Assembly: GCA_050273025.1 (NCBI GenBank)
Contig: CP158635.1
Location: 14,508,001 to 14,572,000, forward strand
Origin: Cenococcum geophilum
Taxonomy: Eukaryota
DNA: 64,000 nt
Direction: 5' to 3'
Below are positions 1 through 64,000 of this stretch, piece by piece; position 1 is the stretch's first letter, and the number at the start of each line of letters is the position of its first letter. Below the pieces are notes generated by a model. That model was not told the DNA's origin. It did no database searches and was given only the letters and a program-made list of their open reading frames with translations. Made by a program: the position numbers and the translations under genes.

Positions 1-2302
1 TATCCTTCCTATTTATTAGTTTAGTGTGGCGTCCGATATCCCTAGCTTTCCTTTATAGCTTTGTAGGGTTCTCTATAGGGAACTTAGCTAGGTCACTACC
101 AACTTCCTAGGTCTTTGGTGTAGGTGGCGTAATATAGGTAGTTTAAGGGCGGCGTAGTATATGGATCCGTTATGGGTTAAGCTATACGTCCTTCTTAAAG
201 GCCTGGTCTCTGCGTATAGCATCGGCCTGGTAAATAGTATTAATCTAGGGCCGTATAAGGTTTTCTATTATAATGCTAATTTTTTTTATAAAGGAAGGGG
301 TCAGGGGTAGAGTTTTGGGCTAGATAAGCCGTTTACTCCGTACTTTAAGCTGCAAGCCTAAATAGGCTAGCTATTTTCTTCCTAAGATTATATCGTGGCT
401 TTTTAAGTCCGTAATGAGAAAGGGGACGTTATACTACCTTCGTCCGTTAACGCGGAGGTGGATCTGTAAGATAGTTATAATAGGTAGCCCTATCCGTCTG
501 TTATAACCGCAAATAGGGATTAGTTTGGGCAGTTCTTTAAGGGGTACATTTAAAAAGTCAGCCAGTTTTATAGCGCACTTTGTGTTAATTAAGGTAAAGG
601 CATTTGCTCCTAAGTTAGCTAAAGCAGAGGTTAAAACTTAATATCTATTGCAAAATAAAGTATAAGGGATAGTGCAGCTTCTTCCACTAACTAGCTAACC
701 TAGATTAATATGTAATATATCAATCCCTTTTAACCCTAGAGAGGAGTCTTCCTCTAGGGTTCCTCTTTTTCTGGCTTTATACTATCCTCCTAAATTAATA
801 AGACCTTGTTTATTCTTACCTTTATCGGGCAGTTCCTTATAGGGTGGCCTATTTAACCGTATAAAAAGCAAGCTCCTTAATTACTAAGGGCCTATATATA
901 GGGGTTACTATATATAGGCCGGGTATACACCGGGCCTATAGTAGGGGTAGCTACGCGGCTAGCTACTGGGTTAGTTATAGGAGTTGCCGATTATACCAGG
1001 GCACTATAGGCCGTATTTATAGTACTTACGGCCTAGTTTATAAGGTTTCTAGTTTTTAGCTAGTTAGCGCGTGCCTTAATTTAACGGAGGCCTTAGTTAA
1101 TAGCTAGGCAATAGTCCATAAGTTCCTTTAACGTCTATGCCGTAGTATAAGCTAGTAATACGGCCCGCTATAGGTTTAGGGTAAGCTTATTAAAGAGGTC
1201 TGGTAGTAGGTTTTCCTAGGGGATCTAGGCCTGTCTGGCCAGGTATAGAAAGCGGGTTTAGAAGGCCAAAAAGGTCTCCGTTATTTTTATATTTAGGCTT
1301 TTATAGCTAAGGCGGGCGTTTTATACTTTAAAAGGGTCTTTATAAATAGAGGATAAGTATTTAATTATTTCTTCTTTAGAGATAAAGGGGTCTATTAAGT
1401 CTTCTATGTATTGCGGGCGTAAATACGTCTGGGCGTCTCCGCTAGTACGGCCGAAGATATAGGCTATTCTGGCTTAGGCGTTAGGGAAGTGGTCTGTATT
1501 AACTTTAAGCTTATCCCGTAATTAAAGCTTCTAATTATTAAATATAGGGTCGGTTCTATCTATAAGTAGTAGGGGGTCCGCGACCTTTACTGACCGCTTT
1601 AGTGCTATATAGGCCTTAGTAGATCCACTAAGGCGCTAGGATAGGGCCTAAAGGACTATAGTAAGTCTTCAGTTGTCTAATAATGACTTATTATTAGATA
1701 TAGGGGTATCTCTAGCTTTAAGCAGCTCTCACAATTGTTTAATTTCGGTATTAGTAGCCGCAAGCTCCGCCTAGGGGGTTAAAACGTTAATTGTTTCTTT
1801 ATCTGAAGTATTTAAGGGTCCTACAGCTGCTTTACCTGCTGCTGTGGTTTGTGGCATAGTAGTAGGGGTATTGGGTAATTTTGGGTAATTTCTTTAGGGG
1901 TTCTGGTCTATATATGTCTTATAGGTCCTTTTCTTAGGGTTCTGTTCTTTTCTTTTAGGTCCTATCCTTGTGGTCTTAGTAATATCCTTAGGGTCCTATT
2001 CTGTGTTCTTATAGATATATTTAAGTTCCTTCTTAGGAAGAAAGAGTAGAGTAAGCTTTAGATAATATTAGCGACTTAGTTAATCGAGATATAAGCACGG
2101 TAAAAGGGTCGCGCAAGCCTATACGATTGGATTGTCTATAAACGAGAATCTAAAGCTAAAGAAAGGAAAGGAGAAGAAGGGGAGCGCCGCTCGAAGCTAT
2201 ATACGATCTTCGCGTCACGTGACCGCAATATGCGGCAATCTGTGGCAACTTGCCGGTGCGTAGTTCTGCCAAGTTCTGCCAAGTTCTGCCAGTGCCGTAA
2301 CA
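1..2302 (-). mobile_element. Ty3/Gypsy LTR retrotransposon, 5' part (5' LTR, gag, protease), RIP-degraded; continues off the left edge
   Basis: LTR about 2066-2302; the minus strand starts TGTTACGGC. The minus strand near 585-630 reads SALA(D)(S)GANAFTLI, an aspartic protease motif with RIP changes. Stops are frequent TAA/TAG. Confidence 0.8.
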
Positions 2303-2889
2303 ATATCTATACTCTAGTGCGGCTAAAGTTAAGGTAATACTTATAGAGAGGCATAACTATATAGACGGGGGCGGTAGTATAGCTGTAGTAATATTTGCCT
2401 AGCTTTAAATGGCTAACTATAGGCTTCTGCTTTATACGGTAGGGAAGGGGGGAAAGGGAGGTAGCTATCTCTTAGTTATATTTAATGTATTTAACCGTTC
2501 TTAATAGCTTTTATTTAGCGTTTAAGACGTATAAGGGTCTCTTTTAGTTTCTTTCTAGTAGGCTATTTAAAAGCCGTTTTAATATACTTTAACACTAAAT
2601 TAAAGAAGGGCTTATATACCCTATACAGAAGGGCCTTCCCGTCTATTTTTTTTATGCGGCGGAGCGCTAAATTTAAAAAATCTCGGCAATTTTAACCGTT
2701 ATGGTTTGGGTTAGCGCGTCCTACTTTAGGCCACTAACCCTTCTTTTTGGCTATCTCCGGATATTAAATAATAGCTAGAGGGCTTGCAAGAAGAATATAG
2801 CTTAAATTAAAACGCTAGGGGTTATGGTTGTAGAGTTATTTTAAAAATTTAATTTTTGTAAAGATTTATATTTTTTAAATAGTAATAAC

Positions 2890-3480
2890 TATTACGGAGT
2901 AAGTATAAGTGATAATAATATATATAAACTGTGTAATAAAGTTAAGACGTTATATAAGGAAAGAAGGTAGGAAAACGGGAAGAAAGAGTATATATTATTA
3001 GCTTAGTTACTTAGTTAATATATATATAGAGCAGGATAGGATTTAGGAAGTAGTCCTAGCAAAACTAAGTAAGACTTAGTAGAACTTAGTAAAATATAGC
3101 AGGATTTAGTAGAACTTGGCGGAATATAGTAAAATATAGCAGATTGCCGTTAGATTGCCGTAGATTACTATCTTATAGTTGGTCTCTAGTTGCTAAGTTA
3201 GTAGAAATAGGTAAACGTGTATAAGGTATTACGGGAGTATCCTATAATAGTACCCCCCCTTTAAACTTAAGCTTCTGCGAGATAGCTTTAGGGGCTATAT
3301 ACTAGAAAGCTCTACGTATACCTCTACTAACGCCGAATTAGGGTATATGGTATTAATAGAGAGGATTTCTATAGTCCTTTAGAGTTCGTAGGAGCTCTAT
3401 TAGGCTAGTTTTAAAGGGGTCTTTTTTAGGCGATTGCATCGTGTTATTGTTTTTGTATTAACAGGATAATAAGACACTAT
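2890..3480 (-). mobile_element. 3' LTR (2890-3249) plus polypurine tract and short internal remnant of a Gypsy-type element
   Basis: Ends TATTACGG...CCTATAATA are RIP forms of TGTTACGG...CCGTAACA. It is followed by GTACCCCCCCTTT (reverse-complement PPT), a flank resembling the one at 20342. The inner boundary is approximate. Confidence 0.6.
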
Positions 3481-6847: not shown

Positions 6848-7826
6848 TTTATTTATTACTTAACGTCCAATTTAAATCCCTATTAGGCCTATGCTAACTA
6901 CTCCTTATACATATATAGGGAGAAAACCCTATTTAAGAAAACTCTATAATCTATCTCCCTGCCTTTTAAAACTTACCTACTTAACGCCTCTAAGTTACCT
7001 ATAGTGCTCTACTACCTTACTTTTTAACCTTTTTAAGAACTACTACTGCTGTAATAAGTCTACGGACCCGCTAGTATTGTAAACTTTACGCTACTACTGT
7101 AGAGTTATTAAGGGGCGCCAAATACTCGCCCCTTTACCTTTTATTACCATTTCCTTTACAATCTAAAACTAGTTTAGTATAATTTAGCTAATAAGCTACT
7201 GGATAACCACCTTAAGACCTTTTATATTAAGAGTAGTATATTATAGTTCTCTATATTAGCTTTTAAAGTATTGCCTCTTAGTTAATATATAAGGGATATA
7301 ACAGTATTACGTATTTAGTGTCTGTCTTAGCCAGCTATATTTACACCTTAGGCTACTTACTAGGATATCCACCCAGTAAAGCTAATTTTTTAGTCTTATT
7401 ATTCCTGCCCTTAAGAGTATTGCTATTATATTTTCTACTTTTATTAGGCCTTTTTAAAGCCCTTAGGTATTTACCTCCTATAGTATTAACTACGCTATAC
7501 CTTAGATTCCTCTTACCTAAATTAACCTCTATACCTTTAACTTATATATACCTCTCTAGCGTTAGTCTAACTAGTATTATATTATAGTAAATAGTTTCTT
7601 AGTATTCTTTTATACTCTACTTTAGCTCCTTTCTCTCTCTTACTATTATCTTTACTAGCCTCTTACGCGTCCCCCTTTCTTCTCTATATAGGCCTAGGCC
7701 CTAATATAGCACTATTCTTCTTCTACCTTCTCTATCTATTTTTCTAATATATCTTCCCTACTTTAGGGTTATTAGTTTATTCTCCTATAGGATACCCTAA
7801 GATCCCCCTCTAGTTTATTTAGGCGT
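6848..7826 (-). mobile_element. 3' fragment of Tad1-like LINE family L1 (same family as 43171-47025), RIPed
   Basis: Colinear with about 43185-44170; the antisense ORFs 7318-7587 and 43658-43864 are near-identical. An AAAT-type tail lies at the left end. Confidence 0.85.
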
Positions 7827-7829
7827 AAT

Positions 7830-8482
7830 TAAAGCGGCATTTATAGAGACTAGCCTTTACCTATTTAATAAACTACCTTTACTACCTAAGGCTACACTAG
7901 AGAAGGACCTATAGTTAATAACTATTAATATTATAACACTAAAAACACTTAGGTAGGCAAGCAACCTAGCTTAATATATTAGGCTAGATTAGGAGAAGTA
8001 GGAGAATAAGGACCTAAATAAGGTTATATAGAAATATATATACGGAGTAGAGATTTAGCTTTAGGTATTTAGATCTCTTAAATAGCAGCTAAAAGAGACT
8101 AAGGCTAAGAATAAGCAACGCTAAAAGCAGAAGGCTAACGCTAGAAAGGTTATATAGAAGTTTAGGGTAATTACAGTTACAGAAGGTCGTTTACTGGCTA
8201 AAAAGAGAAAGATAGCCAAAAAAAAAAGCTCGTAAATAAGCGTAAAAAGCGGGCTAAAATACTAATACCAGAGCCTAAGACTCCTAATAACTCTAAGAAT
8301 AAATATAGTAAATGGGATAAAGCGCGTAAGCGGCAGGAAGACTTATAATTATTACTGTAGTGTACTATAGAATTGATTCTTTTAAACCCTGGCGATTGAG
8401 CTGTCCTGGCGATCCCTTCGTCTGGCAGAAGTCACTTTTCGTATTGGGCGCTTTTGGCGCTTTTGCTTGGGTTAGCATGCTG
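7830..8482 (+). mobile_element. Probable 3' end of a pogo/Tc1-mariner-type DNA transposon
   Basis: The plus strand reads a Lys/Arg-rich stretch ...KANARKV(V)(Q)KF(G)VITVTEGR, resembling fungal pogo transposase C-termini. It ends ...GCATGCTG|TA with a doubled GGCGCTTTT subterminal repeat. The partner TIR was not found. Confidence 0.4.
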
Positions 8483-10410
8483 TAGGCACCCTAGCTAGCG
8501 CGATTTTATTAGCAAAGCCCACTAAAACACCTTAACATTGCGATGCCGACAAAATGATGCCAAAGGCTACTACTAAAAACACCTAATATATATTATTTTT
8601 GAGGAAGTTAAGTAAAAAGTTGTAATGTATGACGTTACGGTTGTACGTTTCTACCTTTCTTCTATTAACTAGCTGCTAATTATATAGGAAAATCCTCCAT
8701 TAGAGTCCTCTAAAGTATTACTACCTATATACTTTATACGCGTTCTTAACGTTAATAAGGATAAGCTAATAGAGGAATAGCTTAAGGTTATAAGGGAAGA
8801 CGTGTTATACACGTTAAATAAAATAGGTTAGGTATTGTAGGTAGTTAAACGGTTTAACTAGTAATTATTTAGTATAGAGGCCCAATTAGAGGCAGTAGAG
8901 GAGGGCTTAAAGGAGGCTAAAAAAGACGCTGCGGCAAAGGCTTAATTAGCTTAAAAGTCTTAATATTAGAGGCTTAAGAAAGTAGAGGATTAAAAATAGT
9001 TACCTAATTATCGCCTATTAAGTAAAAGTTGTTAAAGCACTAAAGGTATAAAGGAAGCCTATAAACCTTGCATTTATATACTATTCGCCTTATTTTTACT
9101 ATAAACTTCTTTACCTCCTTCTATCTACACATCTAGCATCTTAGTAAGCCCTTATAGCCATGCTTCTTTATAAAGCCTTTAATACAGCAATAAGTTCGCG
9201 TTTTACACTATTAAATCGCAGGTAGTAGGGTTTTAGTAGTAATATAGGTAGTCTTTTAATTTGTTTTAATATTTCTATAACCAGGCCTAACACCAGGTTA
9301 ATATTGCCTATATTTTAGTAAGGAGTTTAAACAAAAAAGGCGCTTAGTATCTTGCTTATTTATGCCCATCTACTATCTACCTATAATAATAAAGTTCTAT
9401 ACTAATTATATACGGAAGCAGCGATAAGTTTAAAGGAAGTACTTACTTAATATCTAAAAGATCTTCTTACTAATAATATAGGCGTTAATTATAGCCGTAT
9501 TAAGCGCCTAAAATAATAAGGGTATCTAGGTACACATAGTAGTAATCTAGGTGGCATAGTAGCTTCAAAGTTAATTATGGATATTAACGCCACCTATTTA
9601 GTTATTGTAGTCGATAGAGAGCCTAGAAAGTATTAACTTCTTAATTAGATTATTACCCTAAATATTAGCTACTAGCTTCTTAAGGAAGGAATTATATACT
9701 CGCGGTTAATGCTAATTAACTTTATTAACATCCTTATTACTATATAAGTAAACTATTATTGAAAACCGTACTAAATTCTTGTCCTGCTATATAATTAAAA
9801 GTACTAAATTAACTACGCTGACGACTACTCCTATAATAAAGTTAAACGGTAGCCTTTCCTTCCTTTTATTAGCCCTTTTATACACCTCCAGATAGTCCTT
9901 TAAGTTTAATTAAGCTATGCCAGCTATAGCAATTCCGAGTTATTAAAACACCTAGAGCAACGGAATATTTATAAAGTAGTTATCTAAAAATAGGCAAAAT
10001 CAACAAGCCTAAAGAGGAAGTTATTAGGTAAGGTAGATAATACACTTAAAGGTATTTAAGAGAACGATATCTTAATAATCTGTTTAAGGAGAAAGCCTAA
10101 AAAAGCAGCTAAGTAAGGTAAATATAAAGCTATAGCAATATCCATATTAACAAAGGCTTATTATCTTAAAGCCCTTAGGTACTAGCTTATTAGGCAATTT
10201 AATTATAGCTATAGATTATCTAGTAAACCTTACTATTATTTTATTAAAGCTAACTATAGATCTAGGTATAACGTACTTTCTAAACGCCTTATCTAAAGGA
10301 GTTATTAACGGCTTAATTTTCTTAAAGACCTAACGTTTAACGCCCTCTAGTGGAGGTAGTAAGATATAGAAGAAGCACTTAAGTTACTCCTATCTTTTTT
10401 GGCCTATAAA

Positions 10411-10856
10411 TGTAACGTGGCCCGCCTCCACGTCGCCATACGGCCAAAAAGACTGAGAGTGCTTGCGAACTTGTCGCAAGCGCGGCGGGACCTAATATAT
10501 ATACTCTTACAATTGCCCTCTCCTCTGCGCGCTCGTCCCCGAGCGCTCGCAGGGATTCCTCTGTGCGCCCGTTCGGGCCTCCACAGGGATTAAACGCCAA
10601 GAGTATCACCATATTAGTTAGTCCCCAGTAACGTAAGCAATTGGACTCAGCCAACCCGCCTCATCGCACGGATGTGTGTTAGACTGTACCAGAGCGAAGT
10701 AACCGATAGGGATCAAACCCACGACACCTGGCCCCAGTAAGTTCGCAAGCACAATTGTAACGTGGCCCGCCTCCACGTCGCCATACGGCCAAAAAGACTG
10801 AGAGTGCTTGCGAACTTGTCGCAAGCGCGGCGGGACCTAATATATATACTCTTACA
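10411..10856 (-). mobile_element. TRIM (terminal-repeat retrotransposon in miniature), 446 bp, no visible RIP
   Basis: Two identical 101-bp LTRs TGTAA...TTACA (10411-10511, 10756-10856). 5-bp TSD ATAAA (10406-10410, 10857-10861). PPT AGAGGAGAGGG on the minus strand next to the left LTR. The 244-bp interior is non-coding. Confidence 0.95.
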
Positions 10857-11808
10857 ATAAATAAGCTAATTAAGTGTTTAGGATATTTAGGATTTATAGC
10901 CTAAAGATCTTAGACCTAAGTACCTTTAAAGACGCCTATATAGATAATAAGCTCTACCTAAATCATTAATTTACTAGCAGAGGTCTCCTTCTATGTCCGT
11001 AATTGTTTACCCGTATATTATCCTAATTAGTAATATCCGCTAGCATTCTAAAAGGCTATATATAGGTTCGTATTAATTACAAGCTTCTTAAATACACTAA
11101 CACTAAAGAATAGTAGAAATACTTAAATTAGCAGGTCTTATCTAAATCTATACCTATTAAACGCCATACTAATCTAATTTACTAGCGTATAGTAAGCAGA
11201 GCGCTTACTATCCTTATTTTAATTAGGAAGGTTATTAGATTTAACGTCCGCATTAACGCCGCTAATAGGCTTACTAGTACGCTAAGCGGCGAATATTAAC
11301 TTATCTGGAAGGTTAATAACCTTAAAATCTAGTTTAGGAATAGCGGCTATAGGCTCCCATAAAGTAGGAATAGCAGAAAGGCCTATTCTTTTAACTTCTT
11401 CAGCTAACAGCTCTAGTAGTTTAGTCTTATCTACCTTATCTACCTTATCCTTAGTAGTCTCGCCATAGGGCTTAAAAACGGCTTATAATTCGTTCTTAAT
11501 ATTTTCCATCTAGCTGCTTAGCCAAGCCTCCATAATATTCTTACTTAGCACCGCCGCCTACTATATAGCTACTAAAGCCTTTAGAGGCTATATAACTACT
11601 ACTAACAAGTTATCGTGTATATACTGCGTTGCTTAGAAGGATTATAAATAGGACTCCTAGGTATAAAGTACCTTTAGAGGCTTTAGAGGCCTTAAAGGCT
11701 TTAGAGCTAAAGACGCATAACGTTTTCTAGGTAGCATAAGAACGATATTTTGCTAACAATTTAAGGGCCAAATAGATGGCAACAATAATAAAGCTTTTTA
11801 ATTAACTA

Positions 11809-13677
11809 TTGTATTACATAAGCGAGCTGGCCGTATAAGCGAGCTGGCTACCTTACTAAGACTTAACGGCCTCGCAAGCTAATAGTAACCCACTACTACT
11901 ATCTATTGCTATAATAATTTAATATTAGCTAGATAGACTAATCCTTAGCCTGTTTATATATTCTTAAATTATATCTAGTCTCCCTACAGCGTCCGCAGCG
12001 CCTTTACTACGACGCGTTCCCACTTTTACGCCGCTTACCCTCGCGCGTCTCCCCTTCTACCTACTTATTAACCTTAGCCTGAGCTATTAGATCTAGACCC
12101 TTTGCTACTATAAGAATATCTTACTTTTATAGGCGCTTTTTTTTACGCTTCTTGCGCTGTAATAGAGCTTTATTAGCCTTCTATAGGCTAGCTATCTATA
12201 CGCGCATTAGGGTGGCTTTATGCGCTATCCGCTTAGCACCCTTAGATAACTAGTCTAGCTATTCTACTATTAAGCTAGGTAAACTATTCTAGTAATTTTG
12301 AATTTAGCTATATAGTAGAGCTATCTAATTACCTAGCTTAGTAATATTACTAGGTGTTTTAGGTTCCTATAGGGCTACCTCCGTAGGTAGTATAGGTATT
12401 TAAAGCTTAATATTAAGCTTTAAGAGTACAGCCTTAGGATTAAATGGTACTAGGCCTATACCTCGAAATCCTACGCGTATATTATCCTTAGTAATTAATT
12501 GCTGGTAGGCTGCTTTAAATGCTAGTAAGAATTCGACCTTTTATAATGTAGAAGATATAGCTATAAATAAGGTTATTAACTTACTATCTATACGCGCGCT
12601 TAAGAGGCGCAAAGCAGCCTATATCTAGCGGCTGTAGTAGATGTAATGCGTATACTAGCATATAAAGCGTAAGAATATTCTTCTACTTGCAGAGCTGTTA
12701 AAATTCAAGAGATTAATAGCTCTTATAGCCGTTAATTACTAGTAGGCGATATATACCTACTATACGATGCTATATATGCTTATTAAAGTGCTCTAGCCAC
12801 TTAATACCTAGCTAATTAGTCGTCCAGCCATTCTCGCTTAGCGCGATAGCCTATTCTTATGGTATATTATGGAACTAAGTAGTATAGTGGTACTTTCCAG
12901 CAAATATAATAAATGGTGGAATTGGCCAGCCCTGCGCATTTACACCCTAAATTACTATAACCCATTCTTAATTGCCTGGCTATACAGCTTTAGGCTGGCT
13001 ACGTTACTTAAAGCCTATAATAACTTTAGCAGTTGCTATAACACCCATCTAAAATCTAGCTTTATTAAAATTGTATATGTCTTTATTAAGTATACTATGC
13101 TTTGCCTTAAAATTGCGTACTAGGTTAAACCAGGGCTCGATAATCCTAGGATCCTTATATAGAGCTCACTAATAGTCGTACTTTCAATTATATTGTAATT
13201 TTACCTTAGGCGTCCTCCCTATGTAGTTATATAGCTAGTTAATGCCAACTTTACTAGCAGAGCTAGCAGGGCGTGTAGCGAGTAGTTAATCAGCCATTTC
13301 TCTTACATAGATCAGCCTAGGCGCGAATCCTTGTAAATCTAGGTCTAGAATATGCCGGGTAATAGCCTCTTCTTCTAGCTTAGTAAGCTTCTTTGAATTG
13401 GCTTCGCAATTACGTCGTGAAGTTACACTAGCGTGTCAGGTTTGTAGAGTGCTTTGGGGCACGTTATAGGTTGCTGCAGCGTGTCGCACGCTCTGGAATT
13501 GATTCTTCTTTAAAGCTGAGATAGCTAGAACTAGTCTACCTTCTCTATAAACTGATTCAGGAACGTTGGGTTGAGGCATAGTGGTTGAAGGTTAACGCGT
13601 TGAGTTCTCTTGGCAAGGTGGCCAGCTCGCTTGTATGGCCAGCTCGCTTGTATGGCCAGCTCGCTTGTGTAATACGT
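11809..13677 (-). mobile_element. Fot1/Pot2-like pogo DNA transposon (about 1.87 kb), RIP-inactivated transposase
   Basis: TIRs (AC)GTATTACA(C/T)AAGCGAGCTGGCC contain 17-bp internal repeats; the right end is ACGT|TA. ATG at 13579 gives MPQPNVPESVYREGRLVLAISALKKNQFQSVRHAAATYNVPQSTL (HTH). An NF(DE)xGF-like DDE motif lies near 13050-13075 and an RRCGRC knuckle near 11985. Confidence 0.9.
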
Positions 13678-47391: not shown

Positions 47392-50300
47392 TGTAACGGC
47401 GCTATCGGCGCTATCGCACGTTACCTATCAAATTCTGCCATATTCTGCCGACCTGCAATTAGCCCGCCCAAAGCTAGCGCCTTAGCGGCTCACCCTATAT
47501 ATTTATTTACACCGGCCTTAGCAACCCCTTTTCCTTCTCTTTAGCTTAGTATCTTCGTAATATAGTATTCTATAAGCTTTAGTTTAGAGGCATTTATATA
47601 AGCCGTAACATTATACTAAGCTTACCCTACCTTGCCTAGGAAGGCCTTAATAATATCCTACCCCAAAAAAAACTTCGTCTGCAATGACGCGTTAACGCGC
47701 TATACTTAGATACTAAAACAACTCTACCTTACCTAGGAAGGCCTTAATAATATTCTACCTTATAAGCCAGATAGGACTGGATCTATACCCCCGGAATTAA
47801 AACTAAAGCGTATAATACTAATAAACCTTAGGAAGCTAATAATGGCACTTAAAGTAAGCTTATTTAAGAGAGCTACTTTTACTTAAGAGGAACCTAAGAT
47901 CTAATTAGGATTAGAAATTAAAGATAATAATAACGTTGTAGATGTACGTAAGTAGATTCGCGCCCTTATAGCTAGCTAGAAAGCCGATTATTTTAAAGTA
48001 AGAAATATATAAGAGACTCTATAAGAGATCCTAAAAAGCCTTACAGCCCTATAAAATAGCCTAGCTTTCCCTTTTTAAAGCCCTAGCTAACCTAGTTACT
48101 TTACTAAATATAATATACTAGGGAGTATAGATATAATAATAAAGTAATTAAAGTCTATTAAGCCCCCTAACCCCCTATTACTATTTAATAGGATAGACCC
48201 TACTTTTAAGAATTAGAGGATTTAAGTATAAGGAAAGCTCCGCGTTAATTATAACTATTTCCTTTCTAAAGAAGCTAAAATACTCTACCTCTTTAGCCGA
48301 ACCACTAGGGACGCCTAACAGCACCTCTAAGCCAAGTTTAAGGATAATTCCCCTGTCTAATTTATATCTATTAATAAGATAATATAGTACCTAGCGGCTA
48401 TCTATATTAACCTAAACAAAGAATAAAATGCCTAGTATAACTATAATTACCTAATAATAAAACTAAACTAACTCTTTACTAAATTTTAGACTTAATTCCT
48501 ACACCTTACGGAAGAAGGCTAGGTTTCCCTTAAGAACTACCGATTAGACCTATACGATAAGCTAATAATTTAGCTATAAGAGAAGATTGCTATAACCTTA
48601 GATAACCTACTAACTTATAACAGACTCGCAGCTTATTGCCTATTATTAGACTTAGAACTAAAGCGGATTAAAGCCTATTCTAATTAGTAGAAGCAACTCT
48701 ATAGCGATTGGAACTCGCTAGCTATATTTATAGGAGCTAGAGTAGAAAGATAAGTTACGATTACTTTTATACTAAAAGTGGTTATAACTACGTACTAGCG
48801 AGCAACGCCTAACTAGTTATGTATTACGCCATTAACTAATATTTGCTGCAATACTCTAATTAACTCTACCTTGGCTATATGCTATAACTATAATAAGGAG
48901 GGTTACTTTGCCTTATTTTGCCCGGAGCTAAAGGATATAGGCGATATTAAGGAGATAGAGGAAGGAGAAACGTTTAATAAGTTGGGAAATGTAACGGGAC
49001 TAGCCTAGTTATAGTAGGAATGTCTCGGTGAAATACTTAATAGATGAATTCCGACGCTTTGACCAAAATCTGCTAGATTAATCGAATTACCGAAGTCCGT
49101 TAAAGACCGTGTGCGTATATGTGTACGCATTGACCACTAAGCCCCTGACTATTTAATTATATAATTCTCTTGTTATTCCTTTCTTTTCTTTACGCAACGT
49201 CTTGTTCTTAGCGAGAGCTATATACCCTTAGATTTAGATAGAATTTATATTATTCCTTTAAATCTTCCCTAAAGTCCCTTCGCGCCCTTATATTATGTTG
49301 CGTTAATATTAATACCCTTAAAATGGCAAATAAACTTAAATCCGCTACGTTAACTATTATGGCCCTAGTTAGGGAATAAATGACTATAATATAATAGTCC
49401 TTTATGGATGCCTTGGCCTAGTAACGAACTATACTAGAAGCTTAGTATTAGTAATTAATTAAAGTAATATGTAAAGAACTCTATAACGCTAAAGTACTCA
49501 CGTTAGAGACCCTAACAGTAACACCTATAAATGAAATTAAAATAACTGTATGCGAATTTAACCTATCGAATACGAACCCTAAATTAGTAATAGTAGCTTA
49601 ACCTATACCTACAATAAACCCGGTACCTACTATAAAATCTAAAAAGCTCCCCGACCCTCTAATGTTTAATAGAAATTAAAATAACCTATATCCCTTTATA
49701 ACTAAGCTCCGTCTTAAACTTTTAACAAACTATAACTAATACCCTACTAAAGCTAGCAAGATTAGCTATAGAATATCCCGTTTAAATAAAGACGCTATAT
49801 AAACTATGGACCTATTCTTCCGTAATAGCACCTTTATTAATTTTAAAATCTTTATCTCTCTACTAGAATGAATGTATAATAACGCTAGCTGTAAATATAC
49901 AGCTATTACTAAACTTAAAAACCTATAATAACGGAACTAAGACTTTACCAGCTTTTTTTCGGAATTTTTAGGCCTTATTAGTGAACTGGATTAGAATAAA
50001 GCCGCTAGAGTTACTGCTCTCTGCTAAGCTATTTTAGATAAAATTAGAGTATAGTTAGTAGGTAGAGAACTGCTAAAGGACTTACCCAAATTTGCTATAA
50101 TATGTTAACGAATTAATAAGGACTTTTAATATAATAAATAGACTCGTTCCCTAAAGCCAACCATATCTTATATTTAAAACTCTATAAAACCGGTATATAC
50201 TTTAAAGCGCGATCCGTTTCTAAGACCTAAAAGCCCTATATATAACCCTATAGACCTTAATGCCACCCGATCCTATATACTCTTAGGAATTAATAAATAA

Positions 50301-53300
50301 AGAATATGAGCCGCAAATAGAGAATATTTTAGATATGGAAAAAAGGGATATATTTAAAGGGATTGCTAAACTTACCCTTTTAAAAAGGTCCGCCGTAGCT
50401 CCTTTTAGTCCTTAAGTCGTACTTGTTTTATAAATTATACTTAGTTGCTATAAAGCATCTTGCCTTTAGTTAACTTGGAAAATAAATTATTCTAGGGCTA
50501 AGTCGCGCCTTAAAATAAGAAGTGGAAGAGTATAAGTATCTAGGCTCTTCTAGCGCTGATATACGACACGACTCCCTTAATGTACTTAGCGAAATTTAAA
50601 TACTTAGAAAATGGAAGGAAGTATAAATCCTAATAGATAGCGGAGCCACTAGTATGGGCTTTATTAATATAAACTACGCAAAAACTTAATACTTAAATTT
50701 AAAGAAACTTAATAAGCCCTAAGGCCTATAAGGCTTTAATAGTAAGCCTTTAATATACGGTGAACTAACGTACTACGCTCTTATAAAGATGTGGATAGGT
50801 AAATACCTTAAATATATTTCCCTATTTGTAATACCCTTAAAGTATTATAAGGTAATACTTAGATATAGATAGCTAAAACAATATAACCCTTTAATTAGCT
50901 AGGTTAAAGAAATACTAAAATTCCGTATAACCTACTGCTAAAGTTATTACTTAAAATACTACTTGCCCTATAAATATGTATATAACTATTTAAATTTAAT
51001 ACAATATAAATTGCCCTTGCTATAAACCTTAAACTAATATAATAAAGTTATAACTGCTAATCGTGGTAAGGAATGCGAAGATAATATATTAAAACCTCTT
51101 AAAATTTGTATAATATAAGCCGCACCCTTTTATTTGTTAGCAAGAAAACCAGATTATAAGATCTTTATTATAACACTGGAAGATATTAAGAAGGCGTTAA
51201 AACCAAAGCAATATATTAACCCCCGACCTCTTATACCTAAAGAATATTATAATCTAATTAATATATTTAAGAGATAATTTACGGACTAACTACCCCTGTA
51301 TTAAGATGAGTACGATTTTAAGATAGAACTTGAACCTGGTATAATGCTAAAGTTTAGCCCATTATATAGTATGTCGCGAGAAGAGTTACTTATAATGTAA
51401 TAATACCTTGAAGAGCACCTAAAGAAAGCATTTTATAGTTCTATATATAGTATCTTAAAATAGATATAGAGTTAATATAACTGCCCTTATTAATACTAAA
51501 GTAAATAGCTTCGCCTTTATAAATACTGCCTATATAAATAATATTACTAAGTTTCTAAATATAGAAGCTATTTAACTAGAGAAGCCTATCTAGGTAAAAG
51601 GCTATAACGGACAAGCTAGTTAGCCCATTACCTACATCTTAAAGTTATATATTGCTCTTAACGGACAACACTAATATAGTATCCCCTTTTGCATTCTAGA
51701 CCTAGGGTCCTATAATATAATCCTTAGACGAAAATAGATGTCCTATTTTAATATTTAGTTAAATATATAATAAAGATAGTTTATTTAGCTAGAGGATAGA
51801 CTAAGGTTACCCTTTTTTATTAGAGAGATCTAAACTAACTGCAAGATATTAGCTGTAAGGGCTAACCTTATTTACTAGTAGGATGTCCAGGCCCGTAACC
51901 TAGCCTTTACCTAAAAAAACGCCCGCCGCGAAGCTAGAAAGAACTCTATACTAATAAAGATACTCTCCTAAAGCGCTACGTTTAAAAAGGACTTTATATA
52001 TAAAAGTGGGACAGATAGTAATATAGACAATATCTAAATTATATAAATTTAACCGGTATAGAAAAGAACATATTAATAGGATATAAGGGATAACCTCTAA
52101 AAGATATAATAGGAGCTAAAAGGAGTAATAATAACGCTAGTACCCTAGAAGTCCCTAAAGTTATATACCCCCCTATTATTAGGCAAACCCCCCACTATAG
52201 ATATCGCTGTAATTAGTGCTATAGTGTTCTACTTTAATATATACCAGAAGGACAATAAGGTCTTTATAATAAGCCTATATAAGATTAACCAAATTATTAA
52301 TAATAGAGAGGAAAGGCTAGCTAAGGAAACCGATAAGGAACTTGTTAAACGCCTTCTTTTTACTATTTATACAGATTATAAGGATGTATTCTTAAAAGCG
52401 GCCTTAGATAAGTTACCCCCTTACCAGATATACGATTATAAGATTTAATTAGAAGCCAATAACTTACTAGGCTATAGCCCCCTCTACTATTAATTAATGG
52501 ATAAGCTAAAAGTAATAAAGTAGTACTTAATTAATAACCTAGATAAAGGGTTTATCGAGCTAAGTTAAGCCCCTTTTACTTCCCCTATTCTGTTTATAAA
52601 AAAGCCTAATAGAGGCCTTTATTTTTATATTAACTATTAAAAGCTAAACGCTATTACTTAAAAGGACTAGTATTCTATTCCTTTAATTAATAAAACCCTT
52701 ACACGTCTAAGCTAGGTAAAGATCTTTACTAAACTTAATATCCGCTAAGCTTTCTACTAAATTAGGATAGACCCAATATCTAAAGATTTAATAACATTTT
52801 ATACCCGTTATAGTTCCTATAAATATAAAGTTTTTCTTTTTAGACTAATAAACGGACTGGCTACGTACCAAAGGTATATAAATAACGTTCTTTTTAATTA
52901 CCTTAACGAATTCTATACGGCATACCTAGACAACATTCTTATATACTTAAACGACGAACTTAAGTATTAAGTTTATATTAAAAAGGTCCTGGAGAGACTA
53001 CGGAACGCGGGCTTATAAGTTAATATTAAGAAATATAAGTTTAGGGTAAAACGTATAAAATACCTTAGGTTTATCGCGACTATAGAAGGAATTAAGGTTA
53101 ACCCTAAGAAGGTAGAGGTAATCTATAATTAGAAGCCCCCCTATATAGTAAAAGAAATCTAATCCTTCCTTAGCTTTTATAACTTCTACTACTAGTTTAT
53201 CTATAACTACGGAATTATAGTAAAACCTCTTATATAACTAACTAGGAAGGATACGCTTTTTACCTTTAATAATAGCTATATAAAAGCCTTTAAAGAAATA

Positions 53301-55953
53301 AAGAATTAGCTTATCTCTTCCCTAATTCTTTATTACTATAACCTAGACCTTAAATTAATGCTAGAAACGGATGCCTCTAATAGGGTTATAGCGGGAATCT
53401 TATTATAATTATATCTAGATAGTAAATAGTACTCTATTACTTTCTTCTTAAAGATAATAAACCTAGCTAAGTATAACTATAAAGTACATAATAAAGAAAT
53501 ACTAGTTATTATTTAATTACTTTCTTAATAGTGTATAGAGCTTAAAGGTATAAACTCCTGGATTAAGATATATATAGATTATAAAGCTTTAGAGTACTTT
53601 ATAACTATAAAGTAGCTTACTAAATAATAAGCCTAATGGGCCAAAATACTCTCCCAATTCTTCTTTACGATTATATATTATTTTAGTAAGTAAAACTCTA
53701 AGGCTAATACCTTAACCCAAAGAGAATAAGATATAGGACCCTAGGATAAGCTAAAGACCTAATATTAGACGTGTGCCCTCCTCTATCTAGAATAGCTTAA
53801 CCTATAAATTCTTAAGGAGCTAGACTTCTAGTAAAACGAGCTAGCACTAATAAAGGAGTCTTTAGATAAGCTAATAGGGCTAATTAACTGCCTTTTAACT
53901 ATAAACCGCACGGCTAACGCCTTAAGGGCCCTCCGCAAATAAGCTGTAAAAAAAGACCCTAATTTTAAAACAGAGGAAGGATTGCTCCTATACTAGAAGC
54001 GGCTTATAGTCCCTAATATTAATAACCTATAGACTAAATTAATCCGCGAAGCTTATTGCTAAATCTCTACGGTATATTCTAGTAAGAATAAGACCCGTAA
54101 AATTATTAACTGCCGCTACTACTAGCCGAGAATGGTTGTGGATATTAATTAATATATATAGAACTATAAAGACTGCTAAAGAGCTATAATCCCACGGGAT
54201 AAGACCCTAGGACTACTTAAGCCACTCCTAATACTAAAGCGCCCTTAGTAGTATATCTTTATAGACTTTTATAAACTACCTATAGACCGTAACGGATACG
54301 ATATAGTTATAGTTATAGTTAACTGCTTTAGTAAACGCCCGTTCTTAATTCCCTGTTATAAGAATATTAATGCTAAAAAGGTAGCCTAGCTATATATCTA
54401 TTACGTCTACTAAATCTATAGACTACTAGATACTATTATATCTAATTATAGGCTATAGTTTATATCGGCCTTCTAGAATAAGTTTACCTAGATCCTAAGT
54501 ATTAAGCTAAAGCTTTTTACGGCTTATTACCTCTAGATAGACGGTTAGACGGAGATTATAAATTAGTACCTAAACTAGAGGCTTAGGCCCTTTATTAACT
54601 ATTTCTAGGACAACTAGTCTAAACTACTACCCTTAATAGACTACGCGTAAGTAACCCTACCCTATAACTCTATAGGGTTTGCCCTAATTTAGCTAAAAAT
54701 GGGATACTTACCCTATATAAGCTTTAACTAGAAAAGGCTAGAAGAACCCTAGACTGTATAAAAGAAGCTATCCTATACTAAGGCCTAATAGTACGCTAAA
54801 TAATTAGAGGAAGCCTAGATGGTAGCCCATAAGAACCTAAAAAAAGCTTAGAGGTTAATAAAACAGCAGGCAAATAAACACTATTAAGAGCCTAACTTTG
54901 CCCCTAGTAATATGGTCTAGGTTATAATAAGGAATTTAAAGACTAAACGACCTAGCCGTAAGCTGGACTACTAAATAGTAGGACCGTATAAGGTTCTTAA
55001 AAAGATAGATAACTTATACAAAATAAAGCTCCCAGATTTAATTAGGGTTTATTCTATCTTCTTATTAAATAAGTTATAGAAAGCTGTAAACGACCTATTA
55101 CCTAGATAAAAGAACGAGCCTCCCCTACTAGTTTAAGTAAACGGTGATAATAAATAGGAGGTTAATAAAATACTAGCCTATAAGATAGTATGGGGAACGC
55201 TAAAATACCGTATTTAATAAAAGGGCTATAATTCTAACCCAACCTAGTACCTTACGTAGAACTTTATAGGCTGCCCCTAGAAGCTTAAAGAGTTTTATAA
55301 TTAATACCCTAATATACCTAGACCCCTAAAGTACCTAAATAAATAGATGGAATACTAGTATAATAAAGACAATAAGTTACTAGAAGAATATAGGGACAAA
55401 AACGCCCTAAAGCCCTAATGTAGCTGTCTGTCAAATTCTGCTATATACTGCCGTTTTCTACCAGTACTATAAAATTTTAAATATCTAGGAACTTTAACCG
55501 CCGGTTAAAGTTATCTAATTAGCTAGATCCGTGCCAAGACTTTTAGCAGCTACTCTTTCTAGCCTAGTGCTTCCACTTAGCCTACAATCGCCCTTTGTAC
55601 TTAGTCTGGACATACTTATATCCCCTTTATCTCCTTATCTTATATTTTTTTTTATAATCCTACGTTTATAAGCCTAGTACTACCCTATTTCTAACTAAGC
55701 CTAAAGGCAGGCTTTCTTTTAAAGAGGGGGGTGATGTAACGGCGCTATCGGCGCTATCGCACGTTACCTAATAAATTCTGCTATATTCTACCGATTTATA
55801 ATTAGCCCGCCCAAAGCTAGCGCCTTAGCGGCTTACCCTATATATTTGTTTACACCGGCCCTAGCAACCCCTTTTCCTTCTCTTTAGCTTAGTATCTTTG
55901 TAATACAGCATTCTATAAGCTTTGGTTCAGAGGTATTTATATAAGCCGTAATA
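47392..55953 (+). mobile_element. Full-span Gypsy/chromovirus retrotransposon with both LTRs, RIPed, containing a nested truncated Gypsy
   Basis: 219-bp LTRs at 47392-47610 and 55735-55953; TSD GACTT (47387-91, 55954-58); PPT AAAGAGGGGGG. Motifs: gag zinc knuckle (about 48880), YLD(D)ILIY (52923), ETDAS (53364), DG(Q)TE (54540), chromodomain (about 55150-55270). Confidence 0.93.
48990..51428 (+). mobile_element. Nested Gypsy element: 5' LTR (48990-49292), gag and protease; remainder deleted
   Basis: The LTR matches the split solo LTR at 18372-22812. The interior has gag-like KLPDP(P)MF and IDSGATSMGFI protease (about 50632). The host protease resumes abruptly at about 51429. Confidence 0.85.
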
Positions 55954-57954: not shown

Positions 57955-58842
57955 CAAAGGAGTTTAGGGTGGGACGCAGACTGGGTTTTTGAAAAAAAAA
58001 ACCCTAAAAATTACGGTCACAACCTCTAGATTCAGCAGGCATTTCGCTACCTAGCGGTTTTATTATATAAATTTATTTTCTATATATTAAATAATTATAT
58101 TAATGGGTTTTTTTAATTATATTATGTCAGACGCTGAGCAGGCTGATGGGAATGATACATATGATGCTCTATGAGGAAGAATCTCAGGGGCTTGAAGGCC
58201 CCGAGAAGGTATCTACACGATGGCCCGCGCGCTGTCACGTGACACGTCGCTGAGCTCAAAGAGACTGCCCAAGTACCCCCTACTAACATATTATTTATTA
58301 GGGGGGTATTATTTAAAGATAAACTGTCTCGCTTGGGGGGGGGGGGGGTGTCTGGGGTCTGATGTTACGACTTAAGTAGATTTTAGACGGATTTTGGCCA
58401 TAACCCGACCGACTGCCCATATCCAGCTTTTTATAAAATATCGCTACAACGTTGTTATTGGATGCATTAGATGGAGAAGCTAAAGAACTCCCACTTTATA
58501 GTTTTTTCATAATAATTAGACGCTAAATAAGGGACGAGATACGGCAGTGAAAAGATAAGTTTTGGGTGTATTTTGGGCTTGGGTACCACCAAAGCTAGGA
58601 CCATAAGCTCTCAGACCCTCCGTGGAAGATTCGTTTGGATAAGGAGCAGTATGCCCACACAAACAATCCATGAGATAAACTTTAGCAGCATTGTTGCCTA
58701 TAACACGTGATAATCTCCATGCACCCGTTCTCTCGTCCTCCATTCATTTCCTAATTCCTTTCTTTCTCCTTCTCTACTGATTCTACTGATATTAGACATC
58801 CTCACTGAGGCCCCGAGCAATACTACGTACCCGTAGACCAAA

Positions 58843-60986
58843 ATGCCTAGGAAGGGTTCCAAGACAGCCACACCACAGCTACTGATTGGGTGCCACATTG
58901 CACTAAGTGGCACTTTTACAGGCACTACTCATGCTGCAATTCAAGGTCAAATTACATCCCTTGGGGGTTTCATAACCAAATCGATCACCGACGACACTAC
59001 CCATCTCGTCACGACCCAACGTGACTACGACAAATCGTCTACCAAAGTGAATGCTGCTCGGGAGCATAATCTGCACATTGTCAGCCTTGCATGGATCGAG
59101 CATTGCCTCTCAGCAACGTCTAAGGTGGCCGAGAAAGCCTATCTCTTCACATCATCGCCTGCCGATGTCCCTTCGCAATCGAACGGTCCTCCAAAGCGAA
59201 ATGCTTCACCGGACAGCTCTGCTGATGAGAATGCGAGGTCTCGACTCAAGAAGCAGAAGACTGTCAATGGTTCCAAGACCAAAGTCAAGAGCGACCAAAT
59301 CGCGGACGGACTGATTGTCAAATCATCTAATGTCAAGATTCCGCTCGACGAAGGCTGTCCTCTCACCACCTACGAAGTCTACATTGATGAAAACAGTGTT
59401 ATTTATGATGCTTCCTTAAACCAAGCCAACGCAACTGCCAACAACAATAAGTTTTATCGCATTCAGGTTCTTGCCATTTTCCAAGATATTTTCGAACCTT
59501 GCTAACTTGCTGCAGATTCTTCGAAATCCCACCAATGGAGATTGCAAGACCTGGACCAGATGGGGCCGAGTTGGCGAACATGGCCAGAGCGCAGATCTTG
59601 GCGATGGGACTCTACACAATGCCCTCCAACTGTTCGATAAGAAGTTCAAGGACAAGTCCGGCCTCAGATGGACTGACCGGAGAAATGACCCTAAGCCTGG
59701 CAAATACGCTTTTATCGAACGTAACTACAACCCTGACTCTGATGATGAAGATGATGCCGGCGCCGGCAGAATGGATGGGACCAAAGACGCAACTCAGGAC
59801 GAGCCGGGGACTCCTGAGCCCACGATTCATCCCGCAACTCAGCAATTAATGGAGCTAATTTTCAATCAACAATACTTTGCCGCAACAATGAGTGATCTCA
59901 ACTACGATGCGAACAAGCTCCCTCTCGGAAAGCTCAGCAAAGCCACAATCAGTCGAGGTTTCCAAACCCTCAAGGACCTCTCTGCTCTTCTGGATGACCA
60001 CACATTGGCCGCTCACTATGGCATGCCTCTGGGTGCTGCCACTGAGCATCTTTCGAACCTTTACTACACCGTCATTCCCCACGTGTTTGGTCGTAATCGA
60101 CCACCCATCATTCGATCTCCGGATATGCTTAAGAAAGAAATAGAACTTCTGGAGAGCCTAGGAGATATGAAGGATGCAGCTCTCATCATGAAGACCAAAC
60201 AACAGGACGTCAAGAAAATCCATCACTTAGACAGGCAGTTTCAAGGGCTCGGAATGCAAGAGATGGCCCCTCTTGATCCTAGCGGCACCGAATTTGCCGA
60301 GTTGGAGAATTATTTGCTGAGCACTCGAGGCGCAACCCACAATCTCAACTGCAGCATTCAGCAAATTTTCAGGATTGAACGTCAAGGAGAAAAAGAACAG
60401 TTCGAAAAAAGCAACTTTGCCAGCACGTCTCGTGACCGACGTCTGCTATGGCATGGCTCCCGTTGTACAAACTTCGCTGGGATTCTTAGCCAAGGGCTGC
60501 GCATCGCTCCACCAGAGGCGCCGGTATCAGGATACATGTTCGGAAAAGGCATCTACCTTGCAGATATGTCCTCCAAGTCAGCCAACTACTGTTGCCCGTA
60601 CATCTCCAACGGCCACGCTCTCCTTCTTCTATGTGAGGCAGAATTAGGCAACCCCATACAATCGCTGACGTCCGCCTCTTACAATGCCGGCGAAGATGCC
60701 AAGAGCAAAGGCATGTTATCGACGTTGGGCCAAGGCATGACTGGCCCCAAGGCATGGAAGGATGCGAAGTGTGTGCACCCGTCCTTAGCAGGGGTTCTCA
60801 TGGTATTTCAAAACTTTACTTGGTCCCTTTTTATATTCCCTGACTGACTCCTGCCCTTTACAGCCTGACACGGCGACCGCGCCAGGACCTACCGATGTTC
60901 CAAATGCTGGACTTTTGTACAACGAGTATATCTGCTACGACATCTCCCAAGTTCGACTTCGATATCTCCTTAGAATCAAGATATGA
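58843..60986 (+). CDS. Poly(ADP-ribose) polymerase (BRCT-WGR-regulatory-catalytic; fungal PARP, PrpA/NPO-like), 3 exons, about 677 aa
   Basis: Exons 58843-59466, 59516-60802 and 60864-60986; introns are 49 and 61 nt with GCTAAC/ACTGAC branch sites. BRCT (THLV...IVSLAWI), WGR (NNNKFYRIQ...WTRWGRVG), LPLGKLS and the catalytic H-Y-E triad (WHGSR, GIYLAD, YNEYI) are all present. Confidence 0.97.
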
Positions 60987-63133: not shown

Positions 63134-64000
63134 GATTACTGTAATTGGCAGTAGAATTGAATAAGAGGTGGTTTCAATGAGATCATTATATAAGTAATGG
63201 TGCTTCAAAACAACACCAGGCAGAAGTGTCAGCCTAATGGTTACCGAGGGCGATGCTGATTAACCGGGTTAGACGGTTATGACTTAACGTGTCGGGCCAC
63301 CTTGTGCACGGACCAACATTGTGCAAACCACCTGAAATACCATAAAATATTAATATAGAGCCTCTTTTATATAATGATAAGGCTTTATACTACCCTAGTA
63401 ATATTATGATGCTATGCGATGCTTTGTACTAGTATGCCGACTGTCATAACCCTATCGCTCACGTTATGGGCGCGCGACCGTCGCGCACTGATGCAGATGT
63501 AAACAAGTCAACCCCACGTGATGTTCTAACCTGAACAGGAAGGAGCGAAGCCTGCTTAGGAAGGGTGTGTATGCGTAGCAATTCGGGGGTGTACGATGAG
63601 CAGCGCCCTATATAAGTTCTAAATACAGCGATACCCCTGATATTACGACACGCTTGGGCTGAACAAACGGTATTGTACTAAAGAGGTTTTACTGTAATAG
63701 CTATCTCGGCCCTGCTGCGCATGTTTTGTATACCGCCGAAACACATTCAAATGACGTATATTTATCATGGTTGAAAAGGTGGTGAACGATATCGGAATCC
63801 CTTAATCAGCGCAAAGGTCAAGATATTGAGGGTATCGAGTAAGGGGCTTGAAGTTGAAATATCAACAGGAGGTTCGAAAATGAGTTCCGATTCCAATGGT
63901 CTGAATAATTCGACGTTGCTTAAAGGTTGTCAATAATACGAAGCTTACTACATTCTCAAAGCCTCTCTCAACCACCCGAGAATCCCCACGCCAACCGCGC

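Follow-up and report, generated by a model that had tools for sequence, protein, structure and literature searches.

A 446-bp TRIM and its family in a RIP-competent filamentous ascomycete, most likely self-primed in the manner of Tf1

Introduction

The element located at positions 10411..10856 of the window, i.e., the whole 64,000-nucleotide stretch of Cenococcum geophilum DNA that was analysed, is a TRIM-type non-autonomous LTR element devoid of coding capacity. With good confidence, it can be regarded as a young copy of a multi-copy TRIM family which most likely primes its own reverse transcription as Tf1 does, resides in a RIP-competent filamentous ascomycete, would be served in trans by a helper of the Ty3/gypsy type and enjoys no general escape from RIP. 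The Tf1-like self-priming put forward in a preliminary description of the same DNA is well supported by the pairing observed throughout the family, the conservation of the primer segment within the LTR, a relative (L027) in which both pairing partners have changed together, the covariation of a U5 hairpin, an integrated fossil (L035) and the RNA evidence, the start of the RNA itself being a prediction.

In classical TRIMs, the primer-binding site (PBS) complements the 3' end of a tRNA, whereas the PBS of the present element matches its own LTR. The arrangement occurring in Tf1 is reportedly the subject of a paper by Lin and Levin in 1998, as suggested by its title. According to the account of Tf1 priming in PMC7175516, the 11 bases at the start of the RNA anneal to the PBS, the RNase H cut falling between bases 11 and 12, and the same arrangement is described for Tj1 of S. 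japonicus in PMC4600332. Other self-priming Ty3/gypsy elements from filamentous fungi, as listed in PMC6934838, comprise Maggy, Skippy, Cft-1, Boty, Grasshopper and Afut1. Self-primed reverse transcription has been elucidated in a single yeast element, and it is predicted in many relatives of full size. A search for self-priming non-autonomous LTR elements in fungi yielded, within the literature library covered, TRIMs from bivalves only.

Structural Organization of the Element

The purine run occurring upstream of the 3' LTR on the minus strand (plus 10516-10526) identifies the minus strand as the sense strand of the element, and the following features can be recognized along it:

10406..10410, unstranded: left copy of the ATAAA target-site duplication (sequence comparison)
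10411..10511, minus: 3' LTR in element sense, with TG..CA ends, 101 bp, no difference from the 5' LTR
10459..10472, minus: 14-nt primer segment, 3' LTR copy, complementary to the PBS; U3/R border in the model
10512..10526, minus: polypurine tract (10516-10526) together with the CAAT tetranucleotide that borders on the 3' LTR, conserved in a 34-row alignment
10529..10546, minus: 7-bp hairpin immediately upstream of the polypurine tract, with a two-sided pair change
10657..10697, minus: internal core of 41 nt common to all subfamilies (alignment and RNA reads of run X21)
10706..10722, minus: motif resembling a tRNA T-arm or B-box (by eye)
10739..10752, minus: PBS, 14 nt, without TGG start (complementarity to the LTR segment)
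10753..10755, minus: spacer ATT, 3 nt, between the 5' LTR and the PBS (sequence)
10756..10856, minus: 5' LTR in element sense, 101 bp, identical to the 3' LTR
10759..10779, minus: U5 stem-loop, 7 bp, in the loop separating the primer segment from the PBS (folds and covariation)
10804..10817, minus: 14-nt self-primer segment of the 5' LTR (complementarity, conservation), with the transcript predicted to begin at 10817, LTR position 40
10840..10848, minus: 5' LTR TATA box, with hardly any variation among 46 rows
10857..10861, unstranded: right copy of the ATAAA target-site duplication (sequence comparison)

Over the 446 bp of the element, the two LTRs are identical along 101 bp and display TG...CA ends, reading TGTAAG...GTTACA; an ungapped LTR repeat reaches 106 nt at 99% only by way of chance matches in the flanks. 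Sequence comparison places both LTRs, the ATAAA duplication and the polypurine tract exactly where the preliminary description had located them. The TATA box of the 5' LTR corresponds to the TATATATA run at 10841-10848, and the primer segment begins 23-24 nt past the downstream end of this run, in agreement with the distance of about 24 nt given earlier, and 31 nt past its first T.

A single stop-to-stop frame, 93 aa in length, overlaps the element, and the internal regions of the subfamilies differ by indels which do not keep to multiples of three, e.g., 17 and 27 nt. A further copy of the element was looked for in the 64-kb window and none was found. Among the internal features, the 41-nt core at 10657-10697 may represent a packaging or dimerisation signal, and one pair of the hairpin at 10529-10546 consists of C-G in 23 and T-A in 10 of 33 rows, both sides having changed together. 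The T-arm/B-box-like motif, located about 25 nt past the PBS, looks decayed in the window copy and cleaner in relatives when inspected by eye. It was rejected as a tRNA: ARAGORN detected 0 tRNA genes in the window and a single one in 51 loci, outside any element, and Rfam returned nothing relevant in the element (best E 4.3), in the window or in 4 loci.

The Family of Relatives

Relatives of the element were searched among metagenome contigs with a pattern of 19 nt, made of the last six bases of the LTR, the spacer and ten bases of the PBS. The scan delivered 54 matches in 53 loci. Two of them (L029 and L040) are chance matches devoid of any LTR, and the remaining 52 all occur in an LTR context, as miniature elements or pieces of such elements. 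Complete relatives number 33, with a length of 421-486 bp; all possess two direct terminal repeats ending in TG...CA, the LTR pairs differ at 0-22 positions, and the polypurine tract is conserved among them as well. Perfect 5-bp duplications surround 29 of these 33 copies and their flanks are all different. The count of 33 includes L052 twice, a near-perfect palindromic contig which carries two inverted copies with the same flanks; this palindrome may be an assembly artefact and was treated as one copy.

Depending on the internal region, at least three subfamilies can be distinguished. Most of the loci (46 of 53) belong to two contig series, one of which contains all nine copies of subfamily b and the other every one of the 13 metagenome copies of subfamily a. 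Such a split is indicative of recent amplifications that took place separately in related hosts, and suggests that different host lineages have amplified different subfamilies.

Complementarity between the Primer Segment and the PBS

Read as a reverse complement, the PBS (plus 10739-10752) matches plus 10804-10817 perfectly, as it does 10459-10472. It starts 3 nt (ATT) past the 5' LTR and no TGG occurs at or near its start, two points already made in the preliminary description and confirmed here together with the exact 14-nt match. Since the PBS lacks the TGG start, the 3' end of a tRNA is excluded as the primer. When the 40 nt following the LTR were shuffled, a complement of 14 nt was reached in 0 of 2000 trials.

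The distribution of changes among the relatives has to be read with the search pattern in mind. The primer segment lies outside the pattern and was thus free to vary in the recovered copies. Conversely, the pattern itself imposed ten of the 14 positions of the PBS, so that their invariance is uninformative, and the ATT spacer, invariant in 46 rows, is likewise part of the pattern. Among 41 distinct rows, the primer segment shows 1.14 differing rows per site vs. about 3.7 in the adjacent LTR segments, in spite of the RIP-prone CpA sites it contains; with 1.15 differing rows per site, the TATA region shares with it the position of least variable part of the LTR. Of the 46 copies that possess both a 5' LTR and a PBS, 36 retain 14 Watson-Crick pairs out of 14, i.e., 35 with the reference pair and one, L027, with another. 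In five others, a C>T change leaves 13 pairs and one G-U, which brings the fully paired copies to 41 of 46 when G-U is counted.

These figures bear directly on the idea that the complement is a chance match, or the relic of a dead ancestor, without any present function. A single copy in the window and a short LTR are compatible with it. Against it stand the outcome of the shuffles, the retention of the complement through many transpositions, and the low variability of the primer segment relative to its neighbours despite its RIP-prone sites, so that such an origin appears extremely unlikely.

The copy L027 harbours a two-base variant of the primer segment in both of its LTRs, associated with an exactly compensating two-base change in the PBS. 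Its closest relatives, L024 and L032, share the LTR variant but keep an unchanged PBS and form 12 of the 14 pairs; the three other copies exhibit one or two mismatches between the primer segment and the PBS. Two-sided change in the primer helix is accordingly a matter of a single copy, L027. The contrast between L024/L032 and L027 may mean either that the primer serves to rewrite the PBS when the element replicates, or that some copies have been sampled ahead of compensation.

The compensated change is also relevant to the possibility that a host RNA, either a tRNA fragment or some other small RNA containing the 14-mer, serves as the primer, the LTR copy simply mimicking it or serving another purpose. 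Half-tRNAs are known to act as primers in copia-type elements (as reported in PMC6317226), the host tRNAs available for comparison form a tiny set (none in the window and one in 51 loci), and a T-arm-like motif occurs 25 nt past the PBS. On the other hand, the absence of the TGG start excludes a tRNA 3' end, ARAGORN and Rfam recognize no tRNA in the elements, and the element itself supplies a perfect and conserved complement at promoter distance. Moreover, LTR segment and PBS have changed together in L027, which would not be possible with a host primer of fixed sequence. Priming by a host RNA is considered quite unlikely.

RNA Folding and Covariation

The pairing inferred from the window copy was compared with the whole alignment. 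Of the cells involved in the named structure, 97.3% are paired, vs. 21-37% when the partners are slid, and the covariation score amounts to 0.077 vs. 0.041 in shuffles, none of the 500 shuffles reaching 0.077. RNAalifold predicts the 14-bp helix formed by the primer segment and the PBS unaided. When a model transcript of 366 nt is folded, both the MFE and the centroid structure retain this helix (z -3.34), and the fold of a 98-nt segment displays a modest gain over shuffles (z -1.95, with 8 of 200 shuffles as good).

The loop closed by the helix contains the U5 stem-loop. Among the 41 distinct rows, one of its pairs occurs as G-C in 25, U-A in 6, A-U in 4 and G-U in 3, i.e., in three Watson-Crick states. 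This stem-loop is placed as in the structure of Tf1, to which it may be equivalent.

The pairing of the two 14-mers and its conservation are thus observed, and their use in priming is inferred. In this respect, the 14-mers could pair for the sake of another step, such as RNA circularisation, packaging or dimerisation, or the control of transcription, with another primer at work. The fold of the full transcript leaves some room for such alternatives: the LTR segment located at the 3' terminus of the modelled RNA pairs locally with the adjacent U3 arm over 8 bp. However, this U3 arm decays freely among the rows. The palindrome it forms with the primer segment, tried as a conserved structure and rejected, is broken in 12-16 of 41 rows, and its pairing is no better than that of shuffles (394 of 500). 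In addition, the 14-mer on the PBS side occupies, 3 nt from U5, the very place required for the binding of a primer, no other candidate PBS is available there, and the primer segment, the U5 hairpin and the PBS follow each other as in Tf1 according to PMC7175516. A role restricted to some other step is unlikely in view of these data, and self-priming by the 14-mer of the LTR, with an RNA predicted to start at 10817, remains the well-supported model.

Occurrence in DNA and RNA Sequencing Runs

A stretch of 1046 bp around the 446-bp element was used as a query for sequencing runs. Among the 24 runs listed, 20 runs from 14 studies hold part of this stretch, and six of them are on record as RNA. 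The shares of the stretch found in the runs cluster near 0.41, which corresponds to the fraction of the stretch occupied by the element.

The DNA runs X1 and X5 contain the element in highly repeated form, and its flanks likewise. Some contigs join position 10405 to 10857 and skip exactly 451 bp, i.e., the element plus one duplication (one contig in X1, three in X5), and nine contigs in each of the two runs pass directly from the left flank to the right flank. The contigs that skip the element represent host-repeat copies lacking the insertion, with which both alleles and paralogues are compatible.

A different picture is offered by the metatranscriptome X8, in which the depth of contigs ranges from 130 to 3356 over the element vs. 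0-2.2 on the flanks. Since the flanks are also deep in the DNA runs, a carry-over of DNA does not explain this contrast. The RNA contigs of X8 cover the element, contigs being by nature unable to show transcript starts. In the raw reads of the RNA run X21, approximately 800 reads match the element only along the 41-nt core at 10657-10697 and continue on both sides into diverged sequence of the family which, by eye, resembles the subfamily with a longer internal region. Over the core, the mean depth reaches 611.7 for pairs with the first mate on the plus strand vs. 9.26 in the opposite direction, which means that these reads correspond to sense RNA of the element, assuming the usual stranded chemistry. 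The reads of this diverged member show no pile of starts or ends, and few of them fall on the LTR. The small-share RNA runs X18-X20 were left out of the evidence. Taken together, X8 and X21 establish that the TRIM family is transcribed.

A drop of the X8 depth near 10460 was considered as a mark of the R/U5 border or of the poly(A) site, and was discarded in this capacity: it may reflect the divergence of subfamilies, and the reads of X21 cross ~10460.

Aberrant Integrated Copies

Two copies are of unusual structure. The first one, L035, consists of a unit of 157 bp in which the LTR (1-101) and ATT are followed by LTR (1-53) in exact reverse complement; the unit lies at oriented 6906-7062 on the minus strand of its locus and is flanked by TTATA and TTATG. 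Such a unit would be produced if the plus-strand strong-stop DNA (U3-R-U5-PBS) folded its PBS end onto the 14-mer of its own LTR, and if the annealed end were then extended to the end of U3 and the product integrated; integration is suggested because the 5-bp duplication is near-perfect. With this presumed origin, L035 shows that annealing of the two 14-mers takes place in vivo at the level of DNA, and it provides indirect support for the self-priming of the RNA.

In the second one, at ~6964-7372 of L013, the 5' LTR is replaced by the inverted last 35 bases of the LTR joined to its last 8 bases, and the aberrant copy is flanked by a perfect duplication, GAACC. It probably represents a product of reverse transcription that turned on the U5 palindrome.

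Proposed Mode of Replication

According to the self-priming model, RNA polymerase II would start about 31 nt after the TATA box of the LTR, on the opening base of the 14-nt segment or close to it. The resulting RNA would read R-U5-ATT-PBS, followed by approximately 240 nt of non-coding signals and by PPT-U3-R. As suggested by both structure prediction and covariation, its first 14 bases would fold back on the PBS located 51 nt downstream, with the U5 hairpin lying in the loop. By reference to Tf1, the RNase H of the helper reverse transcriptase would then cut at the end of the duplex, thus freeing a 3'-OH beside the spacer. Reverse transcription and integration would both be performed in trans by a helper of the Ty3/gypsy type, the integration giving rise to the 5-bp duplications.

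The resemblance to previously described systems can be appreciated at several levels. Similarly to Tf1 and Tf2 from Schizosaccharomyces pombe and to Tj1, the PBS next to the 5' LTR complements a segment of the LTR downstream of the promoter instead of a tRNA, a U5 stem-loop separates the primer segment from the PBS, and the target duplications measure 5 bp (as these elements are presented in PMC7175516 and PMC4600332). Unlike them, the TRIM possesses neither gag nor pol, totals 446 bp and uses ATT as a spacer; its complement extends over 14 nt vs. 11 in Tf1, and its RNA start and RNase H cut are those expected by analogy. Because it encodes no protein, it finds no place in the Tf1/sushi clade of chromoviruses: it can work like the Tf1/sushi elements, yet it is no member of the group by protein descent. 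With TRIMs in general it shares two short LTRs, a PBS and a polypurine tract, the lack of coding sequence, a size below 1 kb and the many copies, and with the TRIMs of a RIP-competent fungus the recent activity and the relatively high GC content. The family joins kinds of elements already known and reveals no new mechanism.

A transcribed, many-copy element of 446 bp reduced to its cis-signals would represent a compact natural substrate for the identification of the RNA features needed by the helper enzyme. The natural variants already sketch a test of the pairing, with one doubly compensated copy, two copies at 12/14 and a U5 hairpin occurring in three states.

RIP and the Host Repeat

The preliminary description considered the element as free of RIP and inserted in a heavily RIPed piggyBac. 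The first statement is roughly correct, with a GC content of 54.7% and RIP indices of 1.27/0.93; 6 of the 13 sites at which the window copy differs from its subfamily consensus are C>T/G>A changes. As for the host, its flanks have a GC content of 33-36% and RIP indices of 1.79/0.49 and 1.78/0.53; the element is surrounded by a RIP-mutated and highly repeated sequence, as claimed. The identity of this repeat as a piggyBac was not confirmed, none of the 21 stop-free ORF fragments of 8000-13000 matching Pfam at E<=0.1. The flank of the host repeat has almost no relatives among the metagenome loci.

Recent activity of the element, also put forward in the preliminary description, is plausible with regard to the identical LTRs, the unmutated state of a copy located inside a RIP-mutated repeat, and the transcription of the family. 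The window copy would be younger than the RIP episodes of the host repeat, or not yet hit.

Compactness as a means for short TRIMs and MITEs to escape RIP has been suggested in Parastagonospora nodorum (PMC8549362), and the same reasoning had been applied to the present element, although 446 bp is not below the limit of approximately 400 bp cited in that paper. To evaluate the mutation spectrum, 23 copies of subfamilies a and b were each compared with their subfamily consensus. They exhibit 288 C>T/G>A changes vs. 38 reverse transitions (T>C/A>G) and 85 transversions, and nearly all of the C>T/G>A changes occur in the contexts CpG (131) and CpA/TpG (129). Four of the 23 copies (L001, L021, L026 and L028) carry 30-33 such changes each, and in the more diverged copies the two LTRs differ at up to 22 positions. 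Such a heavy load in several copies deprives the size-based escape of support, RIP-mutated copies being the very outcome that the preliminary description had set in advance against it. The family is subject to RIP-like mutation, the window copy being little affected, and it offers a direct counter-example to the escape of TRIMs by shortness as suggested in PMC8549362.

The Helper and the Neighbouring Ty3/gypsy Elements

The preliminary description regarded the element as the parasite of a chromovirus and called for an autonomous partner sharing its LTR ends. No coding element carrying the LTR, the PBS or the internal sequence of the TRIM occurs in the window or in the approximately 450 kb of the 53 loci, which leaves this part of the earlier proposal unsupported, and a scan of viral contigs gave 0 matches. 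Two candidates were dismissed: L048 is a truncated copy and no long element, and L012, which contains the sole intact RT frame, belongs to an element cut by the contig end and shows no visible similarity to the TRIM.

Fragments of Ty3/gypsy-type RT occur frequently, in the window as well as in the vicinity of the copies. In particular, a RIP-mutated Ty3/gypsy element occupies 47392-55953 of the window, with LTRs of 219 bp (92% alike), the target-site duplication GACTT and an RT fragment at 52356-53174. Its PBS of 10 nt, 2 nt past the LTR, complements a segment of the LTR, a match reached in 3 of 2000 shuffles. A second Ty3/gypsy element with both LTRs, at 6571-12987 of L013, presents the same kind of PBS-LTR complement of 10 nt, again 2 nt past the LTR (0 of 2000 shuffles). 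In both elements the complemented segment of the LTR lies downstream of a TATA-like run, but the two families use different 10-mers, and the self-priming signals of the neighbouring Ty3/gypsy elements, 9-10 nt long, differ in sequence from that of the TRIM. These complements indicate that self-priming Ty3/gypsy elements live in the genome of the window. Elements of the Maggy/Skippy type are accordingly present in the window (47392-55953) and in related contigs; they share with the TRIM a fungal host and a self-priming predicted in the same way, but elements of this type are autonomous and measure 5-8 kb, and the gypsy elements seen here have no LTR or internal sequence in common with the TRIM. 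The neighbouring gypsy fragments that were scanned contain no chromodomain; they yielded a weak, sub-cut-off match to a Tf2-1-like SH3 domain, along with RNase H and RT fragments.

A possible, though rather doubtful, interpretation of these data is that the TRIM family has become an orphan, mobilised by an unrelated self-priming Ty3/gypsy element of the same genome which would recognize the shape, and not the sequence, of a module of about 80 nt comprising the primer segment, the U5 hairpin and the PBS. If this were true, self-priming would act as a portable minimal cis-signal, allowing a TRIM to outlive its parent, and self-complementarity would have a cost in the form of integrated snap-backs like the 157-bp unit of L035.

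Genes located elsewhere in the window bear the mark of a fungal genome. Its GC-rich end contains intact-looking genes, namely a BRCT-WGR-PARP gene at 58837-60847, in two frames that are probably separated by one intron, and a gene for an F-box protein at 61634-63259, and a fungal rhodopsin domain is found among the other genes of the window.
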